Source: Mobula hypostoma | Taxonomy: Eukaryota | Direction of reading: 5' to 3' | DNA length: 64,000 nt | Assembly: GCF_963921235.1 (NCBI RefSeq) | Contig: NC_086097.1 | Coordinates: forward strand, 138,510,001 to 138,574,000 | Shown: piece after piece, positions 7,203 through 64,000 of the stretch | Layout of the letters: each line of letters opens with the position of its first letter | Position numbering within the stretch: the first letter of the stretch is position 1 | Notes under the pieces: generated by a model | Database searches by the model: none | Told to the model about the DNA's origin: nothing | Seen by the model: the letters and a program-made list of their open reading frames with translations, nothing else | Program-made: the position numbers and the translations under genes

Positions 7203-9794
7203 GGAGAAAAAGGGTGCAGAATTTCATGAAAAGAACACCTCTCCAACTGTTAAGCACGGGGGTGGGTCCATCATGCTTTAGGCTTGTGTTGCAGCCAGTG
7301 GCACGGGGAACATTTACTGGTAGAGGGAAGAATAAATTCAATTAAATACCAGCAAATTCTGGAAGCAAACATCACATAGTCTATAAAAAAAGCTGAAGAT
7401 GAAAAGAGGATGGCTTCTACAACAGGATAATGATCTTAAACACCTCAAAATCCACAGTGGACTACCTCAAGAGGCGCAAGCTGAAGGTTTTGCCATGGCC
7501 CTCACAATCCCCTGACCTAAACATCATTGAAAATTTGTGGATAGACCTCAAAAGAGCAGTGCATCTCACAGAACTAGAAGCCTTTTGCAAGGAAGAATGG
7601 GCAAAATTCCCCAAAGAAGAATGGACGGACTCTTAGCTGGCTACAGAAAGTGTTTACAAGCTGTGATACTTGCCAAAGAGGGTGTTACTAAGTACTGACT
7701 GCAGGGTGCCCAAACTTTTGCTTTGGGCCCTTTCCCTTCTTTGTTATTTTGAAACTGTAAAAGATGGAAATTAAAAAAAGTTTACTTGCTTAAAATATTA
7801 AAGAAATGTGTCATCTCTAATTTTATGCCTTTTGGAAATCTGTTCATCTTTTACTCGCTTAGCTATTCAGAGTAACAGAAATTTTGACCAGGGTGCCCAG
7901 ACTTTTGCATGCCACTGTAGATTGTGAACTGGAAGGGCCAGCACTAATCCCTGTGACACCCTGTTAGTTGTAGCTCCGTTAAAGCTGGAATATGCTAAAC
8001 AGTGTAGCTTGGTGCCTCATTAAAATTTGGAAGTTGCTTATAGCTTAGTAACATGATTTCTTCATTTTTTTTGGCATGGGGCATTTATGAAATAAATTTA
8101 TGGAACAGAGTACTTATGGTTATGGTACTCTGTAGAGATCTTACTTTCACCTGGAACTTTGGAACTGACAGCTGCTGTAAACGAATTTTAACTTCTTGTG
8201 GACAAATTGTGTGCGGGAGAAACAAGTGATGAGTTTTGTTGCAGCTTGCTAATGCAGTGCCCAGACTATACCAAGAGAATCAAGCCGGATACTTAGAATT
8301 AACAGTGGCATCTGAAACAAGCTGTATGAAATATCTCAACAATTATTAGAAGCATTTGTGATGTGAACTGCCAGTTTTTTTTTTGCATTGGTAAATTTAT
8401 GTTTTAGCTGCATTGAGTTAATTGCATTTAGGATGCAGGTAAAATTTTGAAAAGAGATCTATCCTTGCAGTTGCTGGTGATTGGATATTGAGTATAAGTG
8501 CAAATCACTACACCCACAGCAGCCATGGGATTGTTTTAGTTTGCAGAGAAATCTCCTGGCTGGGGAGGGGTAAACTTCATTGATATTCCTGCTCCACATT
8601 ATCTATCTCTATGACCTTTCAACTGACTGCAATGAAGTAGGCTGCATGGGATCTGTGTTATTACTTGTTGTACAAGCTTTCGGGTGGCCGTTTGGTGGGG
8701 GGAGGGGTGGCGTGTCAGGGGGATGGTGGGTAAGTTCCCAATTGAAGAAAAGTTGGTATCCTGCTAAAATGGTCAAAGGAAGCACGTAATCTTTAAAAAC
8801 GATTTCTGTTATTTTAAAAAATGAGAATAAAAACTGTGAGAACTTTCCAAGAATGAAATATATTTCAGTCCATATTTTGAGAGAAAAATTGTTCCTGTTG
8901 CCATCTATTGATTTTTTTTAGATAGTCCATTGAGCACAAGTGACTGGAGAAATTTTGTAGAATGTTCAGTCAAAATTAGCAAAGCAAAAACCCATAATAA
9001 AAATGGTCTGTGAAGTTTATTGCAATGCTTTAAACTTTTCTATCTCCATGAGAGCATGTGGCAAAGAAGTGAAGAAGTCCTGTTCTCATTCCTTGAGGTT
9101 GCCTCATCACTTTTCCAACAGATGTCTTTATTTCTCTTTTAATGGAAAATTTGGAATGCAAAATGATGTTCATTCCACGTTCCTGTGGAAGGTGCATCAA
9201 GGTCGGGAGTGCACTGTACTGACAGATGTGCCAATCCCTCCCCCAGGTGTGCCTCAAAAAATTTGTGATTTGCTCCTTCAGCACGAAATGCACTTGAGTG
9301 TGATGGGAGACTGCAGCCATGCATGTTTTATGATTACACATATTGAGTGATTTTTTAAAAAAACTGGCTGGAGTTTATCACATTGCCAGCCAAAGCATAT
9401 TTTCGTTATTAACCCAAATGTGCTGCAATAATGAAAACCAGGCCATTGTGTTTCAGCTTTTAAGAACCTAGTGAAGATTTAGCCTGATTCAAAATGACTT
9501 TCGTCTCTTTTAATTCACCTTGACCAGTTATGATTACGTATGTGAACAAGTACACAATGAGTTGATGGTGATCTTGGTCTTAACTCCCATTAACGCATAG
9601 CCACCAAAAGATGATGCTAAACAATTCCAAAAGCTGTTGATTAGAATACTGATCTTGATTTCAATGAAATATTGAGCTTTTTTAAAAAAAATAGAAATTT
9701 TTAAACTGTCACAAGATTCCTACTGTGTCTCTCAGTCTTGAATTAATGCTGAAGTAATGTGTTTCCAATAAAACTTTTTTTTCTCCCCAAATAG

Positions 9795-11654: not shown

Positions 11655-14600
11655 CTTATAAGATATGGGAGCAGCAGTAGGCCATTTGGCCCATCGAGTC
11701 GGCTTCACCATTCAAACATGGGCTGATCCAATTCTTCTAGTCATCCCCACTCCTCTGCCTTCTCCCCATACCCTTTGATGCCCTGGCTAATCAAGAACCT
11801 ATCTATCTCTGCCTTAAATACACCCAATGACTTGGCCTCCACAGCTGCTCGTGGCAACAAATTCCACAGATTTACCACCCTCTAACTAAAGTAATTTCAT
11901 GTATCTCTGTTCTAAATGGACGTCCTTCAATCCTGAAGTCATGCCCTCTTGTCCTGAACTCCCCTACCATGGGAAATAACTTTGCCATATCTAATGTGTT
12001 CAGGCCCTTTAACATTTGGAATGTTTCTATGAGATCCCTTCTCATTCTCCTGAACTCCAGAGAGCACAGCCAAGAGCTGCCAGACGTTCCTCATACAGTA
12101 ACCTTTTCATTCTTGGAATCAATCTTGCGAATCTTCTTTGAACTCTCTCCAATGTCAGTACATCCTTTCTAAAATAAGGATCCCAAAACTGCACACAATA
12201 CTCTCAAGGATGGTCTCACGAGTGCCTTATAGAGCCTCAACATCACATCCCCGCTCTTGTATTCTATACCTCTAGAAATGAATGCCAACATTGCATTCGT
12301 TGTCTTCACCACGACTCAACCTGGAAGCTAACCTTCAGGGTATCCTGCACAAGGTCTCCCCAGTCTCTTTGCATCTCTGCATTTTGAATTCTCTCCCCGT
12401 CTAAATAATAGTCTGCCGGTTTATTTCTTCCACTGAAGTGCATGACCATACACTTCCCAACATTGTATTTCATTTGCCACTTCTTTGCCCATTCCCCCAA
12501 ACTATCTAAGTCTCTCTGTTTCCTCAACACTACCCGCTCCTCCACCTATCTTTGTATCATCGGCAAATTTAGCCACAAGTCCATTAATCCCACAGTCCAA
12601 ACCATTGACGTACATCGTAAAAAGCAGCGGTCCCAACACCAACCCCTGTGGAACTCCACTGGTAACTGGGAGCCAGCCAGAATAGGATCCCTTTAGTCCC
12701 ACTCTCTGTTTTCTGCTGATCAGCCAATGCTCCATCCATGCTAGTAACTCCTCTGTAATTCCACGGGCTCTTATCTCGCTAAGCAGCCTCATGTGCAGCA
12801 CCTTGTCAAAGGCTTTCTGAAAATCCAAGTACAGCACATCTGCATATACGGCGGATCCGGCAAGTTCAGTAACTGAACTTATGACGGAGAAGGCGGATGA
12901 GCTACAACCTCAAATGTCAACAGCTGTAGTATTGGCGGATGAACATTTGGGAAGAGAAATGGCAATTTCTTCAGTTCGCCCAATGGTAGGCAATAGCAAA
13001 CCACCGTTGCAGTTTGCTAAGAAAACTATGGTCAAACTCACAAAATGTATCACACAACAACAGGGTCAAGAGGATCTTCAAGACAACTCTGAAGATGTTT
13101 GGCTCGGTAGGGTTGATTCTGGCCAGCAGGGGATCCCCGACCGTCGTCAAGCTACTGCTCATAAATTTAAAGTAACGCAAAAGGAAATTATTGCCACTTG
13201 GAATGTAAGAACCTTATATCAAGCAGGAAGATTGGACAATGTGATAAATGAAACGGAAAGGGAATTGGAACAATGTGGTTTTGTGAAAGACAAAGGTACA
13301 AGAAACACAATATGATGTTAAGGATACTATCAGAACGAGCTATTCAAGTGCAAAAAGATTTGTTTGTTTGTTTTATCAACTACACAAAAGCATTTGATAA
13401 AGTGAGGCACAATAAGTTATTTGAAATATTACAGAAAACTCTAGATGTAGATTCGAAAGACCTCCACCTAATCAGAAATCTGTACTGGGAACAAACTGCT
13501 GCTGTAAGAATAGATGGAGAAGTGAGTCAGTTTACGAAAATCAAGAGAGGCGTTAGACAAGGATGTGCTTTCTTCCCTGATTTATTTAATGTGTACAGTG
13601 AAACAATATTACAAAAAATAAGAGACATCTTGGGAATCAAAGTTGGCAGTGAAAACATCAATAATTTCAGATAGGCAGATGACACTGTGCTAATTGCAAG
13701 TACGGAGGAAGAACTACAAAACTTAATTGATATAATTGTTGAAGAAAGTGCAAAAGTGAGTCTATCTATCAATTGCAAAAAGACAATGCATAGTGATATC
13801 CAAAATGAAGGAGTATCCTATCTGCAGGCTGAGAATAAATGGGGAAGACATAAAACAAGTAAAGAACTTTTGCTACTTAGGAAGCTGGGTGAGATCAGAT
13901 GGCAGGTGCGACTTGGACATCAAAAGAAGAATAGGGATGGCAAAAGACACCTTTATGAGAATGAAGAGTATACTGATCAATACTAAACTAGGCATGACAA
14001 CCTGCCTCAGAGTACTGAAATGTTATGTTTATCCAGTTATGTTATATGGCTCAGAATGTTGGACAATATCTGGCAACATGAGGAAACGAATTGTAGCAGT
14101 AGAAATGTGGTTTTTGAGGAGGATGCAAAGAATATCATGGACGAAAAGAATATCTAATGAGGATTTCATGAACAGAGCAAGCACAAAAGGGAAATAATGT
14201 ATGAGATTGTGAAAAGGCAACGTAACTTCATTGGACATGTGATTAGGAAAGAGGAGTTAGAATGCACGGTAATTATGGGAAAGATTGAAGGGAAGAAAGC
14301 AAGAGGAAGACAAAGACAAATGATGATGGAGACAGCAGCCAGAGAACTGGAAATGAATACCAATGAATTGATCCACTTGACCCGAAACAGGAGTGTGTGG
14401 GCCATGGCAGTCAAAGCTCAAACTGGGCATGGCACCTGATGATGAAGAAGATGATGATGACACCAGATCTACAGCATCTCCTTTGTCTACCCTGCTTATA
14501 ATTTCCTCAAAAAATTGCAGTAGGTTCGTCAGGCAGGATTTTTCTTTCAGGAAACCATGCTGGCTTTGGCATATTTTGTCATGTACCTCCAGGTATTCTG

Positions 14601-29888: not shown

Positions 29889-32800
29889 TCAGGCATTATC
29901 AGTTTTTAAAAAGCACAAAACTTTTACAGGATAACAAATGAAGAAACAATTTGTTTAAAATTATCGGTGTCTGAAGCTGCCAAGTTTCTGTCATTATTAA
30001 AGTTGGTAGAAAAACTGTTATGTTTTGTAACTTGAACTAATTGTAAGAAAAATGAGAACTTGTCTACTTAGTTTTTCTTTAGTGCAGCACTCACATATGA
30101 CATGGTGGTGTAATGATATATACCATTCACATACTACTTACATTTAACCCGTAATAAATTATGTGAACAAATAAAAAAATTAAACAATACGTTTACAACA
30201 TTACTCAAATATTACTAAACTATATAGGCACACATACATATGTGCGTGCACATACGGTATACTATATAATACAATGACTAAATAAACATCCACCACATAG
30301 TAAATTTTGAATTGTCATATTCACGCCTAAAGATTTAATCTCTGTGGAGGATTTCTTACTCTTGTGGGATAATGTCTTTCCTGACAAGGTGGGTTACTGC
30401 TTGGCAGGTGAGACTAGTGGCTATGAAACAATCTTAGGTTCTGGGGCCTCCTTGGAAGTGGTTGTAGGAATTGGCTCTGGGACTGCAGGAAGTTAGCTCT
30501 GACTAACCTTCTTCTAACAATTGATTCTGCTGTCTTTATCTGATTGCACCTGATGCCATCTGGATATGATGTATCAATCTCCACTGTGTAAGAGAGTGGT
30601 CCAGTTCTGTCCTTAATCTTTCCAAGTACCCACTTTTGATTGCCTGTAGTCCCTCACCAGGTCTACTTGTCCAGGAGTGAAACATCGAACCTCCTTGTTT
30701 GAGGAGCCCTCAATTTGACTCCGCTGTTTGTCCTGTATACTCCTGAGACTGGGTTTGAGGAAATTGAAGTGTGAGCACAAAGGATGACCCAGGAACAGCA
30801 TAGCAGGTGAATTGTTGGTTGTGAAGTATGCTGCATTGCAATATGTAAGGAGTAAATTGGCAAGCTGATTCAGTGTCAGTGTAGTGTGTTCTGTTGACAT
30901 TACTCATGTTCTCTAGACTCGGACAAACCTTTCCATTAAGCTATTTGTAGTTGGGTGGTACAGTGCAGATGTAATGTCTTGTTCCATTCATTTTCAGGAA
31001 TGAATGAAACTCTTCCACAACAAACTGTGATCCATTCTCACTGAATAAGTGTTCTCGAATACCATTCCTTGAGAAGAGACTCCTCAACACATCAACAGTG
31101 TGTGAGGCTGTAGTGGAAACTATTTGGAATACTTCTGGCCACTTTGCAGCTGGATCCACTACTGCCAAGACATTTGTGCCCATGGATAGTCTGGCAAAAT
31201 GCACATGAAGCTAATGCCAGGACAATGCAGGCCTTTCCCAGGGATGGAGAGAGGTGGTGTTCTTGGCATCTTCTGGACATGTTGACATCCCAAATAGTGC
31301 ATGGCAAGCTGCTCGATCTGCTGACCTATCTCAGGCCACCAGACAAATCTTCAAGCCAACACTTTAATTTGGGCCATGCTTAGAGGACTGGCATGTAGCT
31401 CCTGCAGTTAGCCCTCAGCTTGGATGGTACAACAATTTGCAATCCTCACATAAGGCAACCCCTGTCAAGGCCAAGTTCATCCCGGCACTGGTAAAGTAGG
31501 GGAACTGGAATTCCTGCTGCATATTCCAGCCACTTTGGGTTGCCATGTAGACCTGAGACAGTGTTGGGGTCTTTTCTGGTTTTCCTTTGGATCATCTCTG
31601 CGTAATAGGGAGACTTTTGTTTTGCATTAGGGAAAATAAGTCAGGAGGAGTGCCCTCTTTTGTCAACTTTCCAGGTATCTCCTTTTCTAAGGACGAACTG
31701 GATAATCCACCAGCATTTCCATGATTAGTGTAGTTCTTGAATTTGATCTTGTAATTGTGTCCTCCAAGAAAAAGGCCCAGCTCTGCATAAGTGCTGCTGC
31801 TGCTAGTGGAACACTCTTCTGTGGGTTGAAAACTGACAGCAGTGGTTGATGATCAGTAATGAAGTAAACTGCCTCCCATACAAGTACTAGTTGAAATGGT
31901 TTACACCAAACCAGACTCAAGGCCTCTCTGTCAATCTGTTTGTAATTTTTCTTTACAACTGTAGGGGAACACGATGCAAAGGCTTTGGGGTGTTCACTTC
32001 CATCACTCATAACAGGTGGTATGACTGTACCAACACCATAAGGTGAGATATCACAGGCGAACTTCATTGGATGATGTGTTAGAACAGTGTTGGACCTCAT
32101 CGTTTCCTTTACCTTTTGGAAAGCCACCTCACAGTGCTTTGTCCATTGCCATTTCTTCCCAATCTGTAATGATGAGTTCAAGGGGTGGAGCACAGTAGCC
32201 AGGTTTGGCAGGAACCTATTATTGTAATTGACAAATCCTAAAAAGGACCGCAGCTATGAGACTTCCTTTGGGCGTGGGGCATCCACCACTGCTTGAATTT
32301 ACTTAGCATACTTGTGTAATCCTTGTGCATCAATCGTGTGACCACAGTAAGTGATACTGGTCAAACTTAAAAGCGAAGTATGCATTTAAACCCAATGCAC
32401 TCAGCAAAGCTGGAATTTGTTTCTCATTTGCTTCAAAATACTACTCAGATGCATTCAAATGTACGAAAGATAACTGGTTGATGCATGTATCTTTCCCACG
32501 TAGCCAGCCATTTCTGCTTTTTTTTAACTTGAACCTCTCCCCTTCTGAAGAGAAGCATGCTGCATTTTTTTTTTAAAACACTCTCCCCTTCTTAAAAGTA
32601 AAGTGTGTTGGGCTTCCTAAGGCAAATAGTTGTCTTAGGTTCATTTTCAAACTTCCTCTCCACCACTATGATGCTTTGTAACTCCTAGAAACGAATTGAA
32701 AGAAAAACAGAGGAGCCGGGAGAAATTGGCTACCTAGTTCTTTTTAGTGAGGCACTCACATATGACACGGTGACGTAATGATGTATGTCTTTCACGTACC

Positions 32801-54458: not shown

Positions 54459-54585
54459 ATATCTAAATGCCATTCAGACTATGTGTCCACACATTCTTCG
54501 TTACCTGACCACAGCTGTGATCACCAACAAGGATGTCCGAAAACGTAGGCAGGTCCTGAAAGATTTAGTAAAGGTCATCCAGCAG
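54459..54585 (+). CDS. EIF3E: eIF3e coding exon (equivalent to exon 8), 127 nt
   Basis: ttctctag|A TAT CTA AAT...CAG CAG|gtgagt completes the Gln codon and encodes [42 protein letters not shown]. Confidence 0.97.
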
Positions 54586-54846: not shown

Positions 54847-55746
54847 CATCACCATCATCATCATCAGATCATCAGGTGCCATGCCCAGTTTGAGCTTTGA
54901 CTGCCATGGCCCACACACTCCTGTTTCGGGTCAAGTGGTTCAATTCATTGGTATTCATTTCCAGTTCTCTGGCTGCTGTCTCCATCATCATTTGTCTTTG
55001 TCTTCCTCTTGCTTTCTTCCCTTCAATCTTTCCCATAATTACCATGCATTCTAACTCCTCTTTCCTAATCACATGTCCAATGAAGTTATGTTGCCTTTTC
55101 GTGATCACATACATTATTTCTCTTTTTCTGTTTGCTCTGTTCATGACATCCTCGTTAGATATTAATTTTGTCCATGATAATCTTTGCATCCTCCTCAAAA
55201 ACCACATCTCTGCTGCTACAATTCGTTTCCTCATGTTACTAGATATTGTCCAGCATTCTGAGCCATATAACATAACTGGATAAACGTAACATTTCAGTAC
55301 TCTGAGGCAGGTTGTCATGCCTAGTTTAGTATTGGTCAGTATACTCTTCATTCTCGTGAAGGTGTCTTTTGCCATCCCTATTCTTCTTTTGATGTCCAAG
55401 TTGCACCTGCCATCTGATGTCACCCAGCTTCCTAAGTAGCAAAAGTTCTGTACTTGTTTTATGTCTTCCCCGTTTATTCTCAGCCTGCAGATAGGATTCT
55501 CCTTCTTTTTTGGATATCACTATACATTCTGTCTTTTTACAATTGATAGATAGACCCATTTTTGCGCTTTCTTCAACAATTATATCAATTAAGTTTTGTA
55601 GTTCTTCCTCCGTACTTGCAATTAACACAGTGTCATCTGCATATCTGAAATTATTGATGTTTTCACTGCCAACTTTGATTCCCAAGATGAAACAATATTA
55701 CAAAAATTAAGAAACATCTTGGGAATCAAAGTTAGCGGTGAAAACA
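54847..55746 (-). mobile_element. 5'-truncated RTE LINE with an inverted 5' segment
   Basis: NNFRYADDTVL, YGSECWT; (GAT)n tail at the left; 12-bp TSD tcaacagtgtat at 54835-54846 and 55747-55758; same family as 12842-14460. Confidence 0.92.
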
Positions 55747-56424
55747 TCAACAGTGTATATGATACTAATAAATACAAGAGTAAATATAGTGAAGAGCACA
55801 AAATACCAGAATAGTACAAAGTAATTAGTAACATTGTTCAAACTCGGTGCTCCAAGAGTCATAGTTTCATATACTATGTAACTGGGCCCTTCAACCTTGC
55901 ACATTCATGCCAACGTTTTTGCCCATCTTCACTAATCCTATTTGGTCTTTGACCTTTCTTGTCTTGGCTATTTAAGTGTCATAGAAACATATAAAACCTA
56001 TGGCATAATACAGACCCTTTGGCCACAAAGCATGTCTTTACCTTAGAACTACCTAGGCTTACCCATAGCCCTCTATTTTTCTAAGCCCGTGTACCTATCC
56101 AGGAGTCTCTTGAAAGACCCTATTGTTTCTGATTCCACCGCCGCGAGCAGCCCATTACACACACTCACCACTCTCTGGGTAAAAAAAACTTAGCCCTGAC
56201 ATCTCCTCTGCACCTACTTCCAAGCAGCTTAAAACTATGCCCTCTTGTACTAGCCATTTCAGCCCTGGGAAAAAGCCTCTGACTGTCCGCATGATCAATG
56301 TCTCTCATTATATTGTACACCTCTATCAGGTCACCTCTCATCCTCCATCGCTCCAAGAAGAAAAGGCCGAGTTCACTCAACCTGTTCTCATAAGGCATGC
56401 TCCCCAATCCAGGCAACATCCTTG

Positions 56425-59400
56425 TTTAGCCCCCCGGCCAGCCTCAGGGTCACTCGGCTCGCTGTCGTCTAGGGAAATAGCCCTCGGCCCCACCAAACTG
56501 GGTAATAGTTTGTGTGGATGCTGTGTGATGTACCCCACCCTGCCCAAATAACAGACAATACACCAGATACAAGTAAATGATTTACAGTTTATAGATATTA
56601 CTGGGACTATATAATTAATAGAGAATAAAATATAAAAGGAAAATAAAAGGTGCCACACTTATCAAAGTTCAATCTCTTCGTGCACAAAAAAGTTGGAGTT
56701 CAGGACCCTTCTTCTTCACCCTGCAACCCCTCGGACCGCCTCGACCAGCCACCTGGGGCCAACAATGGTGGTCGACCAGACGCTCCACACAAGTCCGTCT
56801 CCGTCTCCCCTCCTCGCCGAACGCCCCGCTTGGGGTCCGACCCCGTTAGCGGACTCACAGCACCTGGTCTATTCTCTGTCTCTCTCACTCGCCTTCTGCC
56901 CCAAAACCCCGCGCATACAGTATCTTCAAATACACCAAAAACATAACAACTATCCCAATTGGTTCATTCGTCCTCATATCAATAGATAATACAAAACAAA
57001 CTGCTAGCGGGAAGGACTTTCTCAGTGTTTAATATAACAAAGAAGCATTCCAAAGTATAACATAACAAAGAAGCCATTTTAATTAGCCTACACAGTAACA
57101 TAAAAGACGAAACCCCCTTACACTCTCCCCCCACCAAATAAAGTCATGTCCTCATGACTTATAAATAACTCGCCAACCAGTCCTGCAGACACACAACACA
57201 CACATACACAGATACACACAGTGACAGTGCTCCCCAAACAGTGGACCTTACGCCCGTCCCATGGGCGCTACATAGGCCAACCTATCTGGGAGCTTCTTAA
57301 CCCTCCGAGACCTCCGTACCCCCTCACCTAAACCCAAAGGGCTCAGACACTACTAGGGATACCTCAGGCCTGCTTGCCAACTCCTCTCTCACATTACAGC
57401 TCGGAGCCCCCTGTCCTGTGTCCGGGGCCCTGCTTCTTTTCCGTCCTGATCCTACCGTAACTCAGACTGTCCACAGCTAGCCCTCCCCACTACACCTGAC
57501 TCAGTGGGAGAAGGGCCAAAGGTCTCTTCCTCAATCACGGGGAAGTTAGTGAAAGGCAGCATGTACCACATGTGCAGCACATCATCCTTTGAATCCGTAT
57601 TCTTCCTCATTCCCTCGATCGGTAGCCGCTGTTTAAGTTTCTCCAAACTGAAACATTTAGCTGAGGCTACCCCTTCAGCCTCCTGCAGCCGAGACGTCAG
57701 CTTCTTCGGGGACTCCTTCAACTCTTGCCACAGCCTCAGCAGGTCGGACTCGGAGTTCTTGGCCATCTCAATCTGGGACGCAGTTACCCCACCAGCTTCT
57801 TCCACCCTGACCTGAAAAGCAGCAGTTAAAGAATGTTCAGCCTCCAGTTTTCCCTCCTTGATGACGTCTTCCAGGTCAACTTTCAGTTTTTCCGGTTAAT
57901 TTAAACTCGCGATAGTCATCTTCAGGTTCCGTTCAAGCGTCCACCTCCCTTTTCCGAGATCTGTCCTCCATTTCTTAACCTTCTCGGGAGTGTAGTCAAA
58001 CTCCCCTCCCTGGGCTCTCAGTTTTCTGTTGGCCTTAGTCAGAACACTTCCTTCCCCAAGTTGTAAGTCTTCCAATCTTTTCTGAATCGACGTCTTGAGT
58101 TTCTGCTGATCCCTTCAAAGGTGAGTCATTGTTTCTTCTCGCTGGATTAATTCATCAGTACATGACCGCAGTGTCGGCTCGGAATTCCGTTGTTCCATCT
58201 CCACGTTGACGAGCGTGAATTCCAAGTCTGCATGGTCGTCCCACAAGTGCAGCACTCAGTCTCCGGCCGGCATTTCTGAGCACTCAGTTCAGCGGTGCAA
58301 ATCCCCTCTCTCCCCTGTGTCTCATTCAGATTGACGACCTGGATTTCCATCCCCAGGTCCACCACCGTCGGTTCCAACACCAGGAAGTTCAACTGGTATG
58401 TCAGGTCATTTTTCTCACACTGCACCAAACTCCTCCGGCCAAAAACTCCTCCACATTTGACACTTCTTCACATTTGACACTTCGCTTCTGTCGCCCGGGC
58501 TCAGCCACTCGCCTGGCTTCATAGTCCCCCCAGGCGAATCCAAGCTCTAGGTGGTCATCCACATAGACCAAAACTCCACACACCTTCACTTCCCCCATGC
58601 TCTTTCTCATGCCTTGCGGGAAGGATGCAGGGGCTCTGGATATGCCCTTGGGCATCTTTTCGGATTGGAAGAATCCTAGGGAACTAGTAACGTCCATCTT
58701 CAGCTTGACAGCCACACTCCTTGGGATCTGGCAACATCCACTCCTCAGATCTAGCACATTAAATCACGTCACATAATCCACACACACGCTGCCTCCATCT
58801 TCCCCGGCGCCAGGGTCCAGTTGCCATGACCTCTCTCTCACTGAGGTGTCTTCAGCGGTCAACTCCCCTCCCTCGTGGTAGTTGGGAGCATCTACTAAGA
58901 GGGTCTCACCCTCAGCTACTTTCCCCAAGCCGTACCACCGCTGGGTCTCACTTAAATTCAGTACCAGCTCAAGGCTGCTACACACGTCCTCAGAAGCAAC
59001 TCGACACGCTGGGTGCCCAGACAATGCCCCCATGAACTCCAGAGTCATTAACCAATCATCGTCCTCTGGATAACTACTGGCACTGGTACCCAAAATCTCC
59101 AGTGCCCTTGCGGTTATCAAGGGTAAATGCTTCAGACACCGGTTGTAAAACGAACTGTACAACAACTTGACCTGCGCCGTGGCGTCGAGGATGGCTTTAG
59201 CATCGCTTCCCTCTAAACCTTCAGGAATAGGGTCTTTTCCTTGCGGAAGTTCATTGGTACGTTGCTAGGAACGTGCTTCCCCAGAGACCCCAAGCCATTC
59301 CCCCACTGGGCCTCCACTAAGTTTCCCGACACCTCTCTGATCAGCTGAACAACTGAAGGACCCCCTGAAATGATCCCCCGGCCTTGCAAGCAATTTAGCT

Positions 59401-60605
59401 GCCCTCTTAGAGAAGACGCACTGAAAACTTTCCCCCCTCTTTCAAATAACTGACAGCTGTCACTATGGTGTAAGTGAACCTGACAGCTCTAACATCGTCA
59501 CCAGCCCGCCTACTCAAAATTTCAACCACTCCCTGTCGCTCTCCCTCAACCGAGCACTGCCACTCATCTAACAACTGAGAGATCGCTGCGCCCACACCTT
59601 GCACGCCTCCACCCCTCTTGGGGTGGACACTATCCCAAACGCCAGGCAGAGCCTGCCAGAGCTAGAACATTTATTCGCACACACTACCTCCAAATCAGAC
59701 CACTCTTTCCTCTCTCTCCCAACAGCATAGACAGCCCCGAGTTCCACCTCCAACTCGTCAATGCTAGTCTGAATTCGAACAAAGACCTCACCCACCACGC
59801 ATGCAGCAATAACCAGCAAATAACCCACAGAGACACACATTACAGATTTAAACAGGGCACCCACACAGTATACCAGTAGACCCAATCCCAGACAAAAACC
59901 CCCACAATGTAGCCCCCCTGGCCAGCCTCAGGGTCGCTCGGCTTGCTGTCGTCTAGGGAAACAGCCCTTGGCCCCGCCAAACTGGGTAATAGTTTGTGTG
60001 GATGCTGTGTGATGTACCCCACCCCGCCCAAATAACAGACAATACACCAGATACAAGTAAATGATTTACAGTTTATAGATATTACTGGGACTATATAATT
60101 AATAGAGAATAAAATATAAAAGGAAAATAAAAGGCGCCACACTTATCAAAGTTCAATCTCTTCGTGCACAAAAAAGTTGGCGCTCAGGACCCTTCTACTT
60201 CACCCTGCGACCCCTCGGACCGCTTCGACCGGCTGCCTGGGACCAACACGGTGGTCGACCAGGCGCTCCACACGAGTCTGTCTCCGTCTCCCCTCCTCGC
60301 CGAACGCCCCGCTCGGGGTCCAACCCCGTTAGCGGACTCACAGCACCTGGTCCATTCTCTGTCTCTCTCTCCTGCCTTCTGCCCCAAAACCCCACGCATA
60401 CAGTATCTTCAAATACACCAAAAACATAACAACTATCCCAATTGGTTCATTCATCCTCATATCATTAGATAATACAAAACAAACTGCTAGCAGGAAGGGC
60501 TTTCTCAGCATTTAACATAACAAAGAAACATTCCTTAGTATAACATAACAAAGAAGCCATTTTAATTAGCCTACACAGTAACATAAAAGATGAAACCCCC
60601 TTACA
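56425..60605 (-). mobile_element. Non-autonomous Gypsy-type LTR retrotransposon; 5' LTR 59908-60605, 3' LTR 56425-57122
   Basis: Two 698-bp LTRs with about 40 differences by hand count; TSD CTTG; PPT ggtggggggagag; degenerate tRNA-Pro-like PBS tgggggtttttgtctgggatt; decayed gag, protease (ILDATAQV) and RT (LDLRSG..MPKGI..APASF..YVDD). Confidence 0.93.
57614..58490 (-). pseudogene. Captured intron-less fragment of class II (sarcomeric, MYH16-like) myosin heavy chain rod inside the LTR element
   Basis: Hand translation gives [101 protein letters not shown]. These are in the same order as myosin S2/LMM motifs. Confidence 0.85.
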
Positions 60606-60682
60606 CTTGTAAATCTCCTCTGCACTCCTTCTATGGTTTCCACGTCCTTCCTGTAGTGAGGCGACCAGAATTGACCACAGTA

Positions 60683-62181
60683 CAGGTGTCCCCCGCTTTT
60701 CGAATGTTTGCTTTACGAAACCTCACTGTTACGAAAAAAAAGGCAGCACGATAAAAAATTCAGGCGAAAAAAATCAGCGCGCGATAAAAGGCAGCGCGCG
60801 TGCCCGAGCAGCCGCTCTCCCCCGGATTCGAAACTGCATTCTCACCGGCATTGCTTAAATACGTGCCTGTGAGCAGCCGTTTGCAAGATGAGTTCTTTGG
60901 TGTCGGGAAAGCCTAAAAGAGCTCGTAAGGGTGTTACACTTAGCGTAGAACTATACATAATTAAGCGTTTCAATCGTGGTGAACGAAGTAAGGACTAAAT
61001 GAGTTTGGCTTGTGGAAGCTGACAGATGATGTTGAAGAGGTTTTGACATCCCTTGACCAAGAACTGATAGATGAAGAGCTGATGCAATTGGAAGAGGAAA
61101 GGATAACAATCGAAACCGAATGCTGTAGCGAAAGTGAAGCAACTGCGTGAGATTTTCACTGCAATGATAAAGTTCGACTTTAATTTTGAAAGGGTACGTC
61201 GGTTTAGGGGATATTTGCAAGGTGGTTTGAGTGCTTACAAGGAACTGTATGATAGAAAAATGTGCAAGGTTCAGCAGTCAAGCAAGCCTTCCACATCAGC
61301 CACAGCAGACGACGAACCTCGACCTTCGACATCGAGGTGAGCAGTCATAGGAGAAGATGAGCTGCCTGCTCTAATGGAAACAGACGACGAGATGACACCC
61401 CAGTGTCCCACCACCCCAACACCCAGGCCACGGACAAATACTGTACCGATTCACGGAGAATGCATAGACGACGCAGTCGGAAATCGGCACTGATCTGGGC
61501 CAACAATTACGTGCCAGGCGGCACCTAATTAATTAGCATGTTTATTTCGGCTTTTTTCTTAAAGATGTGCTGTGTGTCTCCCAGCTACCGCTGGACCCCT
61601 GCATGTTTCGCAGCAATGTATCGGTCGGCAGCCTAGAGGGTAGGGGCCACTGCACCACCCCAGCCTGCGACGACTCAGTCTAACACACCATCATCAATGT
61701 GCTCTGCGCTGTCTTCCCAATTCCAGTAAGTGATACTACACTGTACATACATTATTTCTATTTTATATCGGCTGTGTATTTTTACGTGTTATTTGGTATG
61801 ATTTGGCAGCTTCATAGCTTAAAGGTTACTGGAGAGCGGTTGCGCCGTGTTTTTGCCAACAGCGCTTGCGTGAGAGTTTCTGCCGACGGCGCTTGCGTGA
61901 GATTTTCGCTACAGAGAACAGTGCAGTAATGATTGTGGAAAAGTATTTCTACTTTATATAAGCTGTATATTTATTATATCATTCCTGCTTTTACTATATG
62001 TTACTGGTATTTTAGGTTTTATGTGTTATTCGGCATGATTTGGGAGGTTATTTTTGGGTCTGCGAACGCTCACAAAATTTTCCCATATAAATAAATGGTA
62101 ATTGCTTCTTCGCTTTATGACATTTCGGCTTACGAACCGTTTCATAGGAACGCTCTACCTTCGGATGGCGGGGGAAACCTG
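60683..62181 (+). mobile_element. Internally deleted Tigger/pogo-family DNA transposon
   Basis: TIRs caggtgtcccccgc / gcgggggaaacctg; TA on the left, TC on the right; remnants MSS..KPKRARKGVTLSVELYIIKRFNRGE (psq-type HTH) and acidic C-terminus ELIDEELMQLEEE; no DDD domain. Confidence 0.85.
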
Positions 62182-62719
62182 TCCTCCAAGTGGTGTCTGC
62201 TGAAGTGCTTCTTAAATGTAATGATGTGATTCCAGCACCGCCTCTTGAGAGTGCATTCCAAATATCGGCCACATTGTGGAAACAACATTTTTCCTTCAAA
62301 TGTCATTTAAAACAACTTCCTCTCACCTTAAACCCATGCCTTCTTGTTTTTGGGGATCAGAACTGCAAACAGAATTCCAAATGTGACCTAACTAAGATAA
62401 GAACTCTTGTATGCTACGCCCCATCCTCTGAAGGCAGGCATGCCATATTGTCTATCTTCACCACCCTATCTAGTTGTTTTCATGGAATTATGAAATTAAA
62501 CTCCAAGATCCTTATTCATCAACATTCCTAATGTCTTATTATTTACTATATACAACTGGATCCACCTTCAGGTTTTCCTGATTCAGTCCAGATGAATGCA
62601 CTCCAAGTCTTCCAGGTCTGTCTTTAAGCAGTCACTTACTTCCCAGTCCAAGTATCTCCACTTCAGGAGCCTCAGGATCAATCTGTCGCAGCCATTTACC
62701 TCAGAGGCATGGTAAGAGA

Positions 62720-63914: not shown

Positions 63915-64000
63915 ATCTTTGACATTGATACTCATAAGAGTATGATATTTCTAACTGCTGGATAAAAAGACTAGGAGTGTCTTGTCTTGATATGCCTCCA

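Follow-up and report, generated by a model that had tools for sequence, protein, structure and literature searches.

A myosin-carrying LTR element family of rays, probably helper-dependent, whose reading frame appears to stay open while its protein drifts

Introduction

How does an element with two closely similar ends come to enclose a wrecked interior, and why should that interior hold part of a host myosin? The question is raised by an element of the ray Mobula hypostoma, located at positions 56425-60605 (minus strand) of a 64,000-base stretch of contig NC_086097.1 (assembly GCF_963921235.1, positions 138,510,001 to 138,574,000), referred to here as the window. Two long terminal repeats (LTRs) surround a 2785-base interior that reads, in order, as a gag remnant, a protease (PR), a cut reverse transcriptase (RT) and part of a myosin rod, ending in a short tail. 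A sequence-only reading of the window had proposed that the interior decayed over many rounds of copying before this insertion, and that a non-autonomous family may have spread myosin sequence through the genome.

Comparison with related copies makes it fairly probable that the element is one dead copy of a helper-dependent LTR family of rays, which carries a myosin fragment in a frame that was kept open, and which integrated here and then decayed. The comparisons are best read as selection on translatability in a family mobilised in trans, the encoded protein drifting as if it were useless. A further step can be taken only tentatively, with somewhat less than even confidence: the stolen myosin stretch may be stop-free filler that keeps a helper-dependent RNA on ribosomes, its stops and frame having been policed for tens of millions of years. 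A captured piece of a vertebrate gene, amplified over two ray families in an open yet neutral frame, would show selection for translatability and not for encoded content. If this is true, ray genomes offer a natural setting in which to test whether translatability by itself can be selected.

An open frame and a drifting protein

Related gene models carry the evidence for an open frame. Three loci in Hypanus encode the same 729-residue gag-PR-RT-myosin-tail product, aligning without gaps at 93-97% identity, and variants elsewhere have 691, 647 and 632 residues. Mobula siblings are open over 418-450 residues starting at the PR-RT linker, and in the Mobula subfamily the open fused frame is seen only from this linker onward. 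The siblings keep the frame through both cargo junctions. Between Mobula and Hypanus copies, each part has an identity of 57-64%, a depth at which neutral drift predicts 6-9 stops per 600 codons in each lineage; in the simulation, 0 or 1 of 80 neutral lineages stayed open. The long insertions and deletions of the window copy mostly preserve the frame as well: seven of nine do so (11, 51, 26, 9, 3, 42 and 208 codons; p ~0.008), and the two that break it are a 17-nt duplication and a gap of about 80 nt in gag.

The residues tell of drift. In four Mobula-dasyatid pairs the differing residues have a mean BLOSUM62 score of -0.35 to -0.41, and the neutral simulation gives -0.40 (sd 0.18); the corresponding mean between host myosins is about +0.2. 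The Mobula cargo contains 5-8 prolines per ~190 residues, whereas host myosin rods have 0 in 475. Catalytic motifs are altered in several copies. For the window copy the sequence-only reading had quoted DLRSGCCQ in RT and DAT in the protease, and both motifs are present in the sequence as first quoted.

Two layers of decay

The two LTRs provide the scale against which the decay of the interior can be set. Each is 698 bp long and lies on the minus strand; the 5′ LTR (59908-60605) has TG...CA ends, and the last dinucleotide of the 3′ LTR (56425-57122) is unlike that of the 5′ LTR. Their alignment has 658 matches, 32 transitions and 7 transversions, i.e. 39 differences at 697 sites (94.4% identity; Kimura two-parameter distance 0.059), which reproduces the earlier estimate of about 40 of 698 positions and about 94% identity with many changes at CpG. 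Twenty-two of the 39 changes are CpG-type, and the CpG is retained 11 times in each LTR, a symmetric pattern. Off CpG-type sites the difference is 16/623 (2.6%), compared with 23/74 at CpG-type sites, under a CpG mask slightly wider than that used for the count of 22. One stretch of about 110 bases of the LTR pair is free of any difference. A CTTG duplication flanks the element at 56421-56424 and 60606-60609 (LTR and flank alignment). The flanks join in an uninterrupted copy of the same long interspersed element (LINE) elsewhere in the window, where CTTG occurs once; the repeat is therefore a true target-site duplication, as had been claimed, and marks a real integration site.

The damage within the interior falls into two layers, one of inherited residue drift and long deletions and another of stops, which agree with decay after insertion. 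The protein of the window copy is 85-90% identical to its M. birostris siblings, a range that excludes P0006, which aligns at 71% because its model crosses frames. In simulation, 85-90% protein identity corresponds to a pairwise DNA difference of about 5.5-8%, near the LTR value of 5.6%. In run X1, at least 40% of the depth disagrees with the window copy at 175 positions of 4148 bases, and at 94 of these the change runs in the CpG-decay direction; were all 175 in the interior, they would amount to 6.3%. Among 40 of the 278 variant rows, 5 fall in an LTR and 35 in the interior, near the shares of length (p 0.16). The GCCQ motif is common to all seven aligned rows that span it, Hypanus included, and together with the protein distances this argues that the residue drift was inherited.

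The stops have a different distribution. Those at 59267, 58117 and 57898 are missing from 98-100% of the depth in run X1 and from 97, 77 and 100%, respectively, in run X3; at 58766 and 57454 sibling proteins have residues. Siblings also read across the frame changes near 58470 and 58231. Hypermutation of the editing type was considered: the private changes are CpG-type, and at the protein level the shared changes have no single bias.

The trees place most of the divergence before the insertion. From the Narcine split to the window copy there are 0.48 amino-acid changes per site in the cargo, of which the terminal branch accounts for 0.079; in the RT tree the terminal branch is 0.094 and the stem 0.315. 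The divergence of the insert from its donor thus greatly exceeds that between the LTRs, and the two are not about equal. The proposal that the interior decayed before insertion holds for this older share of divergence, but not for the five stops and at least two frameshifts, which are absent from siblings. In the same way, the LTRs are young relative to the cargo and not in absolute terms.

Anatomy of the interior and origin of the cargo

All parts of the interior lie on the minus strand. The gag remnant (59400-59669), PNMA-like in a Hypanus sibling, has two frame changes in this copy. The protease remnant (59030-59270) has in-frame deletions of 11 and 51 codons relative to Hypanus copies and a stop at 59267. 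The RT remnant (58431-58772) is truncated at both ends, has a stop at 58766, and is shifted in frame by a 17-nt tandem duplication near 58450-58483 that the siblings do not have. The MYH16-like myosin rod fragment follows in element sense at 57612-58430, with its left junction set by eye; it has stops at 58117 and 57898 and a frameshift at about 58231. The C-terminal tail of the fused frame (57391-57611) is common to the family and probably represents the end of the old pol gene, a putative assignment; its stop at 57454 is missing in three siblings. A polypurine tract, read from the sequence, occupies 57123-57135 immediately ahead of the 3′ LTR. The primer-binding site, apparently decayed, is assigned by position only (59885-59907) and may resemble a tRNA-Pro site.

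The class of the element can be suggested with caution. Ty3 RTs are the only solved-structure matches to the RT remnant, and they are weak (E 0.016 and 0.078); among siblings, PF14893 (PNMA) matches P0038 at E 0.004 and RVT_1 matches P0045 at E 9e-6, both under the curated cut-offs. A Ty3/Gypsy-type label thus leans on weak RT and gag matches and is provisional. The order gag-PR-RT is conserved, and RNase H, integrase and env families gave no match in any of the six frames of the element, so the order of RNase H and integrase cannot be read. Judged from this gene content, the element would have depended on an integrase from another source.

The cargo is similar to sarcomeric myosin (Myosin-7, E 6e-8). 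Positions 58228-57617 align to residues 947-1005, 1008-1075, 1085-1097, 1140-1167, 1376-1395 and 1399-1414 of a teleost myosin-16-like protein, and about 130 myosin codons (947-1075) are continuous in the cargo without insertion. In vertebrate myosin genes these codons cover several exons. In a tree built on 171 columns, all 17 cargo rows form one clade (ultrafast bootstrap, UFBoot, 100), with a Narcine myosin model as sister (98) within an MYH16-like group (97). The Narcine model retains part of a stretch that is missing from every family copy and is therefore the best stand-in for the donor. The window cargo shares 53% identity with this model over 99 columns; with full-length myosins the identity is 41-45%. 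A donor search returned teleost myosins only, myosin-16-like being best (36% vs 32-33%), and no full ray MYH16. The nearest relative outside the family is P0046 (Narcine bancroftii, "myosin-6-like isoform X4", 225 residues), at 70% identity to P0014 over 70 residues. As a separate observation, P0046 skips internal stretches, and the ray MYH16-like gene may be badly annotated or itself broken. The subfamilies contain Mobula and dasyatid copies together, which makes the capture of myosin older than the insertion unless the element crossed species.

A multi-copy family in rays

Several searches place the element in a family. A search with the cargo found 13 proteins among 758 candidates, and all 13 are ray gene models, from Mobula birostris, M. 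hypostoma, Hypanus sabinus and Hemitrygon akajei. With a profile, 168 matches reached E ≤0.001; of the ten looked up, seven are further ray copies, and the others include one Narcine myosin model and one lungfish myosin. The element is thus far from single-copy, with relatives on many contigs in Mobula, Hypanus and Hemitrygon. The spread across rays and the single cargo clade (UFBoot 100) agree with the earlier suggestion of a non-autonomous family that disperses myosin sequence. A target duplication of its own at this locus, together with monophyletic cargo at many loci, amounts to secondary retroposition as a non-autonomous element.

Public contigs give a sense of scale. Across the interior, summed contig depth is ~900x that of a single unique flank bin in one DNA run and ~800x in another; summed contig depth is no copy number, and one of the runs may be the window's own source, but the figures read as a family of hundreds or more copies. 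Depth over the LTR (window 56455-57149) is 9.5x and 6.5x that of the interior in the two runs. Contig depth cannot rank the parts of an element, and the excess may reflect many solo LTRs or other interiors with the same LTR, possibly those of a helper. Contig joints skip 270, 60, ~119 and 111 bases (57797-58068, 58081-58142, 58172-58292 and 57288-57400). The ~119-base skip is seen in all four runs and is the same as a gap in P0008 and P0009, and is therefore a subfamily deletion and not an intron. Four of six contig skips keep the frame, which is not significant (p 0.10). None of the runs that contain the sequence is listed as RNA; run X9, guessed to be RNA, has a profile that resembles the DNA runs and is evidence neither way on expression. 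P0190, a metagenome-derived member of a cluster, proved unrelated to the family and was dropped.

Competing explanations

The same facts allow other accounts. The interior might be plain junk, in which stops and frameshifts piled up over many rounds with the frame unconstrained, and the open models would be a lucky tail. Many copies do have altered catalytic motifs, the substitutions look neutral, annotation prefers open frames, and gag of the window copy has two frame changes. However, all five main-frame stops are unshared, seven of the nine long indels keep the frame, and the equal-length 729-residue products at three loci imply that the source copy was open; with 0 or 1 of 80 simulated lineages stop-free at such depth, we consider this account unlikely. 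Slightly less credible still is a fusion protein that works through its myosin coiled coil or its gag, for example by joining the helper particle and dragging its own RNA in, which would make the cargo an adaptation of the parasite. Such a protein would be in keeping with siblings that preserve the frame across both junctions, with the milder spectra of some M. hypostoma copies and with the precedent of a cis-acting gag-pol fusion (PMC6466679). It fits poorly with a cargo whose deletions differ by subfamily, which contains helix-breaking prolines, and whose drift keeps pace with that of the dead PR and RT (57-64% identity throughout). An old single insertion with gene-converted LTRs, or an autonomous insertion later overwritten by a cargo-bearing copy, is largely refuted and very improbable. 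The ~110-base LTR stretch without differences is what such an event might leave, but the CpG decay is symmetric (11 and 11), the distance from the interior to its siblings is about that between the LTRs, and the siblings lie on many separate contigs.

Selection on translatability in a helper-dependent family, the reading preferred here, has its own share of contrary observations. The sibling proteins are gene models selected for openness, and they were compared at the protein level. The ~80-nt gag gap breaks the frame, and the two gag frame changes are assigned to neither layer of decay. Three pairs with M. hypostoma copies have milder mean BLOSUM62 scores (+0.02, -0.19 and -0.21), so some subfamilies may have had protein constraint. 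The five main-frame stops compare with 2-2.5 expected from decay at the LTR level (p 0.05-0.11), the stop at 58117 is missing from just 77% of the X3 depth, and the variant evidence covers 40 of the 278 rows. The cargo tree has just 171 columns, and a partial Narcine model stands in for the donor gene and for a full ray MYH16 protein. Mobilisation in trans is deduced from a missing integrase in decayed sequence, as no helper was found: the search for one gave a single match among 171 candidates, itself a family member, and metagenome and viral contigs gave none. In the ESM Atlas, the helper search returned generic RT clusters under 0.9 only.

A proposed history

The preferred reading suggests the following course of events. 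A Ty3/Gypsy-type element of an ancestral myliobatiform ray would have acquired part of an MYH16-like myosin mRNA, and the most likely route is template switching in the manner modelled for other captures (PMC5131818). This part would have replaced RNase H, integrase and the end of RT, and the resulting chimera would then have become a non-autonomous family, copied by the enzymes of a putative helper and splitting into subfamilies. Along the copying lineages residues would have drifted in a neutral-like fashion and long deletions would have accrued, yet gag-PR-RT-myosin-tail would have remained one open frame, likely because the RNA needs read-through translation, or a fusion protein acting in cis, for its stability and packaging. 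The window copy inserted into a LINE fragment that lies downstream of an eif3e exon; it then decayed, mainly at CpG, with LTRs and interior changing at about equal pace, and would have gained its stops in this phase.

Precedents for such a dependence on translation come from two systems. The mouse IAP 1-delta-1 element has an in-frame gag-pol fusion that reportedly helps its retrotransposition in cis (PMC6466679). In yeast Ty1, RNA stability has been suggested to require some translation, possibly, and not Gag itself; the same authors note that defective Ty1 elements are as mobile as competent ones (PMC3945221).

Relation to known systems

Gene capture by LTR elements is already known; what is new here is the scale, the age and the open-but-neutral frame. 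The closest relatives are LTR-mediated retrocopies, which likewise hold partial host mRNA in a discontinuous LTR element, in the same sense and in frame, and which are able to retropose again as non-autonomous elements (PMC5131818). Most of these are young and occur once or only a few times, and of 21 older cases 14 have loss-of-function changes. The ray element, in contrast, is a multi-copy family that spans two families of rays; its subfamilies are deep, and its frame is open at 57-64% identity. The word "myosin" is absent from the main text of that source. Another example is maize Bs1, as described in the same source, which shares captured host exons, common switch points and secondary retroposition (PMC5131818). 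Bs1 has one to five copies and a functional hybrid protein has been described for it; the ray family, in contrast, apparently has hundreds or more copies and a cargo that drifts as if neutral.

Two further systems resemble the ray family in their dependence on others. Mouse IAP 1-delta-1 is non-autonomous and internally deleted, its gag and pol being fused in frame; it relies on gag and pol supplied in trans and outnumbers full elements among new insertions (PMC6466679). It belongs, however, to the class II endogenous retroviruses, its deletion is a plain one that brought in no host cargo, and the cis effect shown for it is only inferred for the ray element. In the bovine ERVK D-type "parasite-of-parasite" elements, defective copies similarly dominate new insertions via trans-complementation (PMC10924933). 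These differ in being retroviral, they are described as having no functional genes, and the abstract names no captured host sequence. A literature search, from which repeat libraries, supplements and subscription journals were left out, gave no account of a myosin-carrying element in rays, and the main text of the manta genome preprint (10.64898/2026.10.27.761883), supplements aside, contains neither "myosin" nor "MYH".

Age and consequences for annotation

The insertion probably dates back millions to tens of millions of years, a range and not a firm date. One M. hypostoma model shares a 90% cluster with an M. birostris sibling, and two mobulid species are separated by about 20 million years (preprint 10.64898/2026.10.27.761883). 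Against the unique flank, a second species differs at 7 letters in ~260, the same order as the non-CpG LTR difference. A direct mutation rate of 7e-10 per base per generation has been published, which gives no per-year figure (PMC10587355), and the literature search found no date for the divergence of Mobulidae and Dasyatidae.

The suggestion that the family produces false MYH annotations is borne out by at least nine ray gene models that bear myosin names, and the family can give the false impression that myosin genes have expanded in mantas and stingrays. Three family-bearing models have unrelated host names instead (SDHAF3, TMEM192 and GSTT2). Family sequence lies in the SDHAF3, TMEM192 and glutathione S-transferase theta-2 isoform models P0013, P0038 and P0192, from Hypanus sabinus and Mobula birostris. 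P0013 fuses a host N-terminus to the cargo, by real exonisation or by an annotation merge, either being possible. The sequence-only reading had also raised myosin-matching small RNAs. At the inferred base difference of 26-30% from the donor, 3-6% of 21-base windows have at most 2 mismatches; antisense silencing of myosin mRNA from the eif3e pre-mRNA is therefore doubtful, as is small-RNA silencing of myosin mRNA by the window copy.

The insertion site and its surroundings

The host gene is represented by one exon of eif3e on the plus strand (54460-54585), which encodes residues 242-283 of 445, has AG/GT ends and matches at E 1.6e-22; its translation is identical at 42 of 42 residues to a solved-structure eIF3e sequence. 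The element lies downstream of this exon on the opposite strand. A search for the next eif3e exon up to base 64000 of the window did not find it, and from the gene order, seen on one side, the element would lie inside an eif3e intron in antisense orientation. The flank of the element is a high-copy LINE. The left part of the fragment hit by the insertion (56090-56424) was defined by flank alignment with another copy, and the remainder continues beyond the right CTTG to ~60683. The fragment is presumably of CR1 type.

The window contains other mobile sequences. A pair of LINE fragments at 54868-55750 and 13599-14443, 94-97% identical, inverted and 40 kb apart, shows that a young LINE family is present in this gene region. 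The LINE fragment entered by the myosin-carrying element has received a second insertion at ~60684-62183, which has short inverted repeats at its ends, contains a decayed coding sequence and looks like a pogo/Tigger-type DNA transposon. On the minus strand, a 188-codon open stretch at 31687-32253 resembles RNase H and the end of RT from another LTR retrotransposon. A 227-codon open stretch on the plus strand (988-1671), with an inverted pair at 686-776 and 7800-7890, is assumed to be like a Tc1/mariner transposase.

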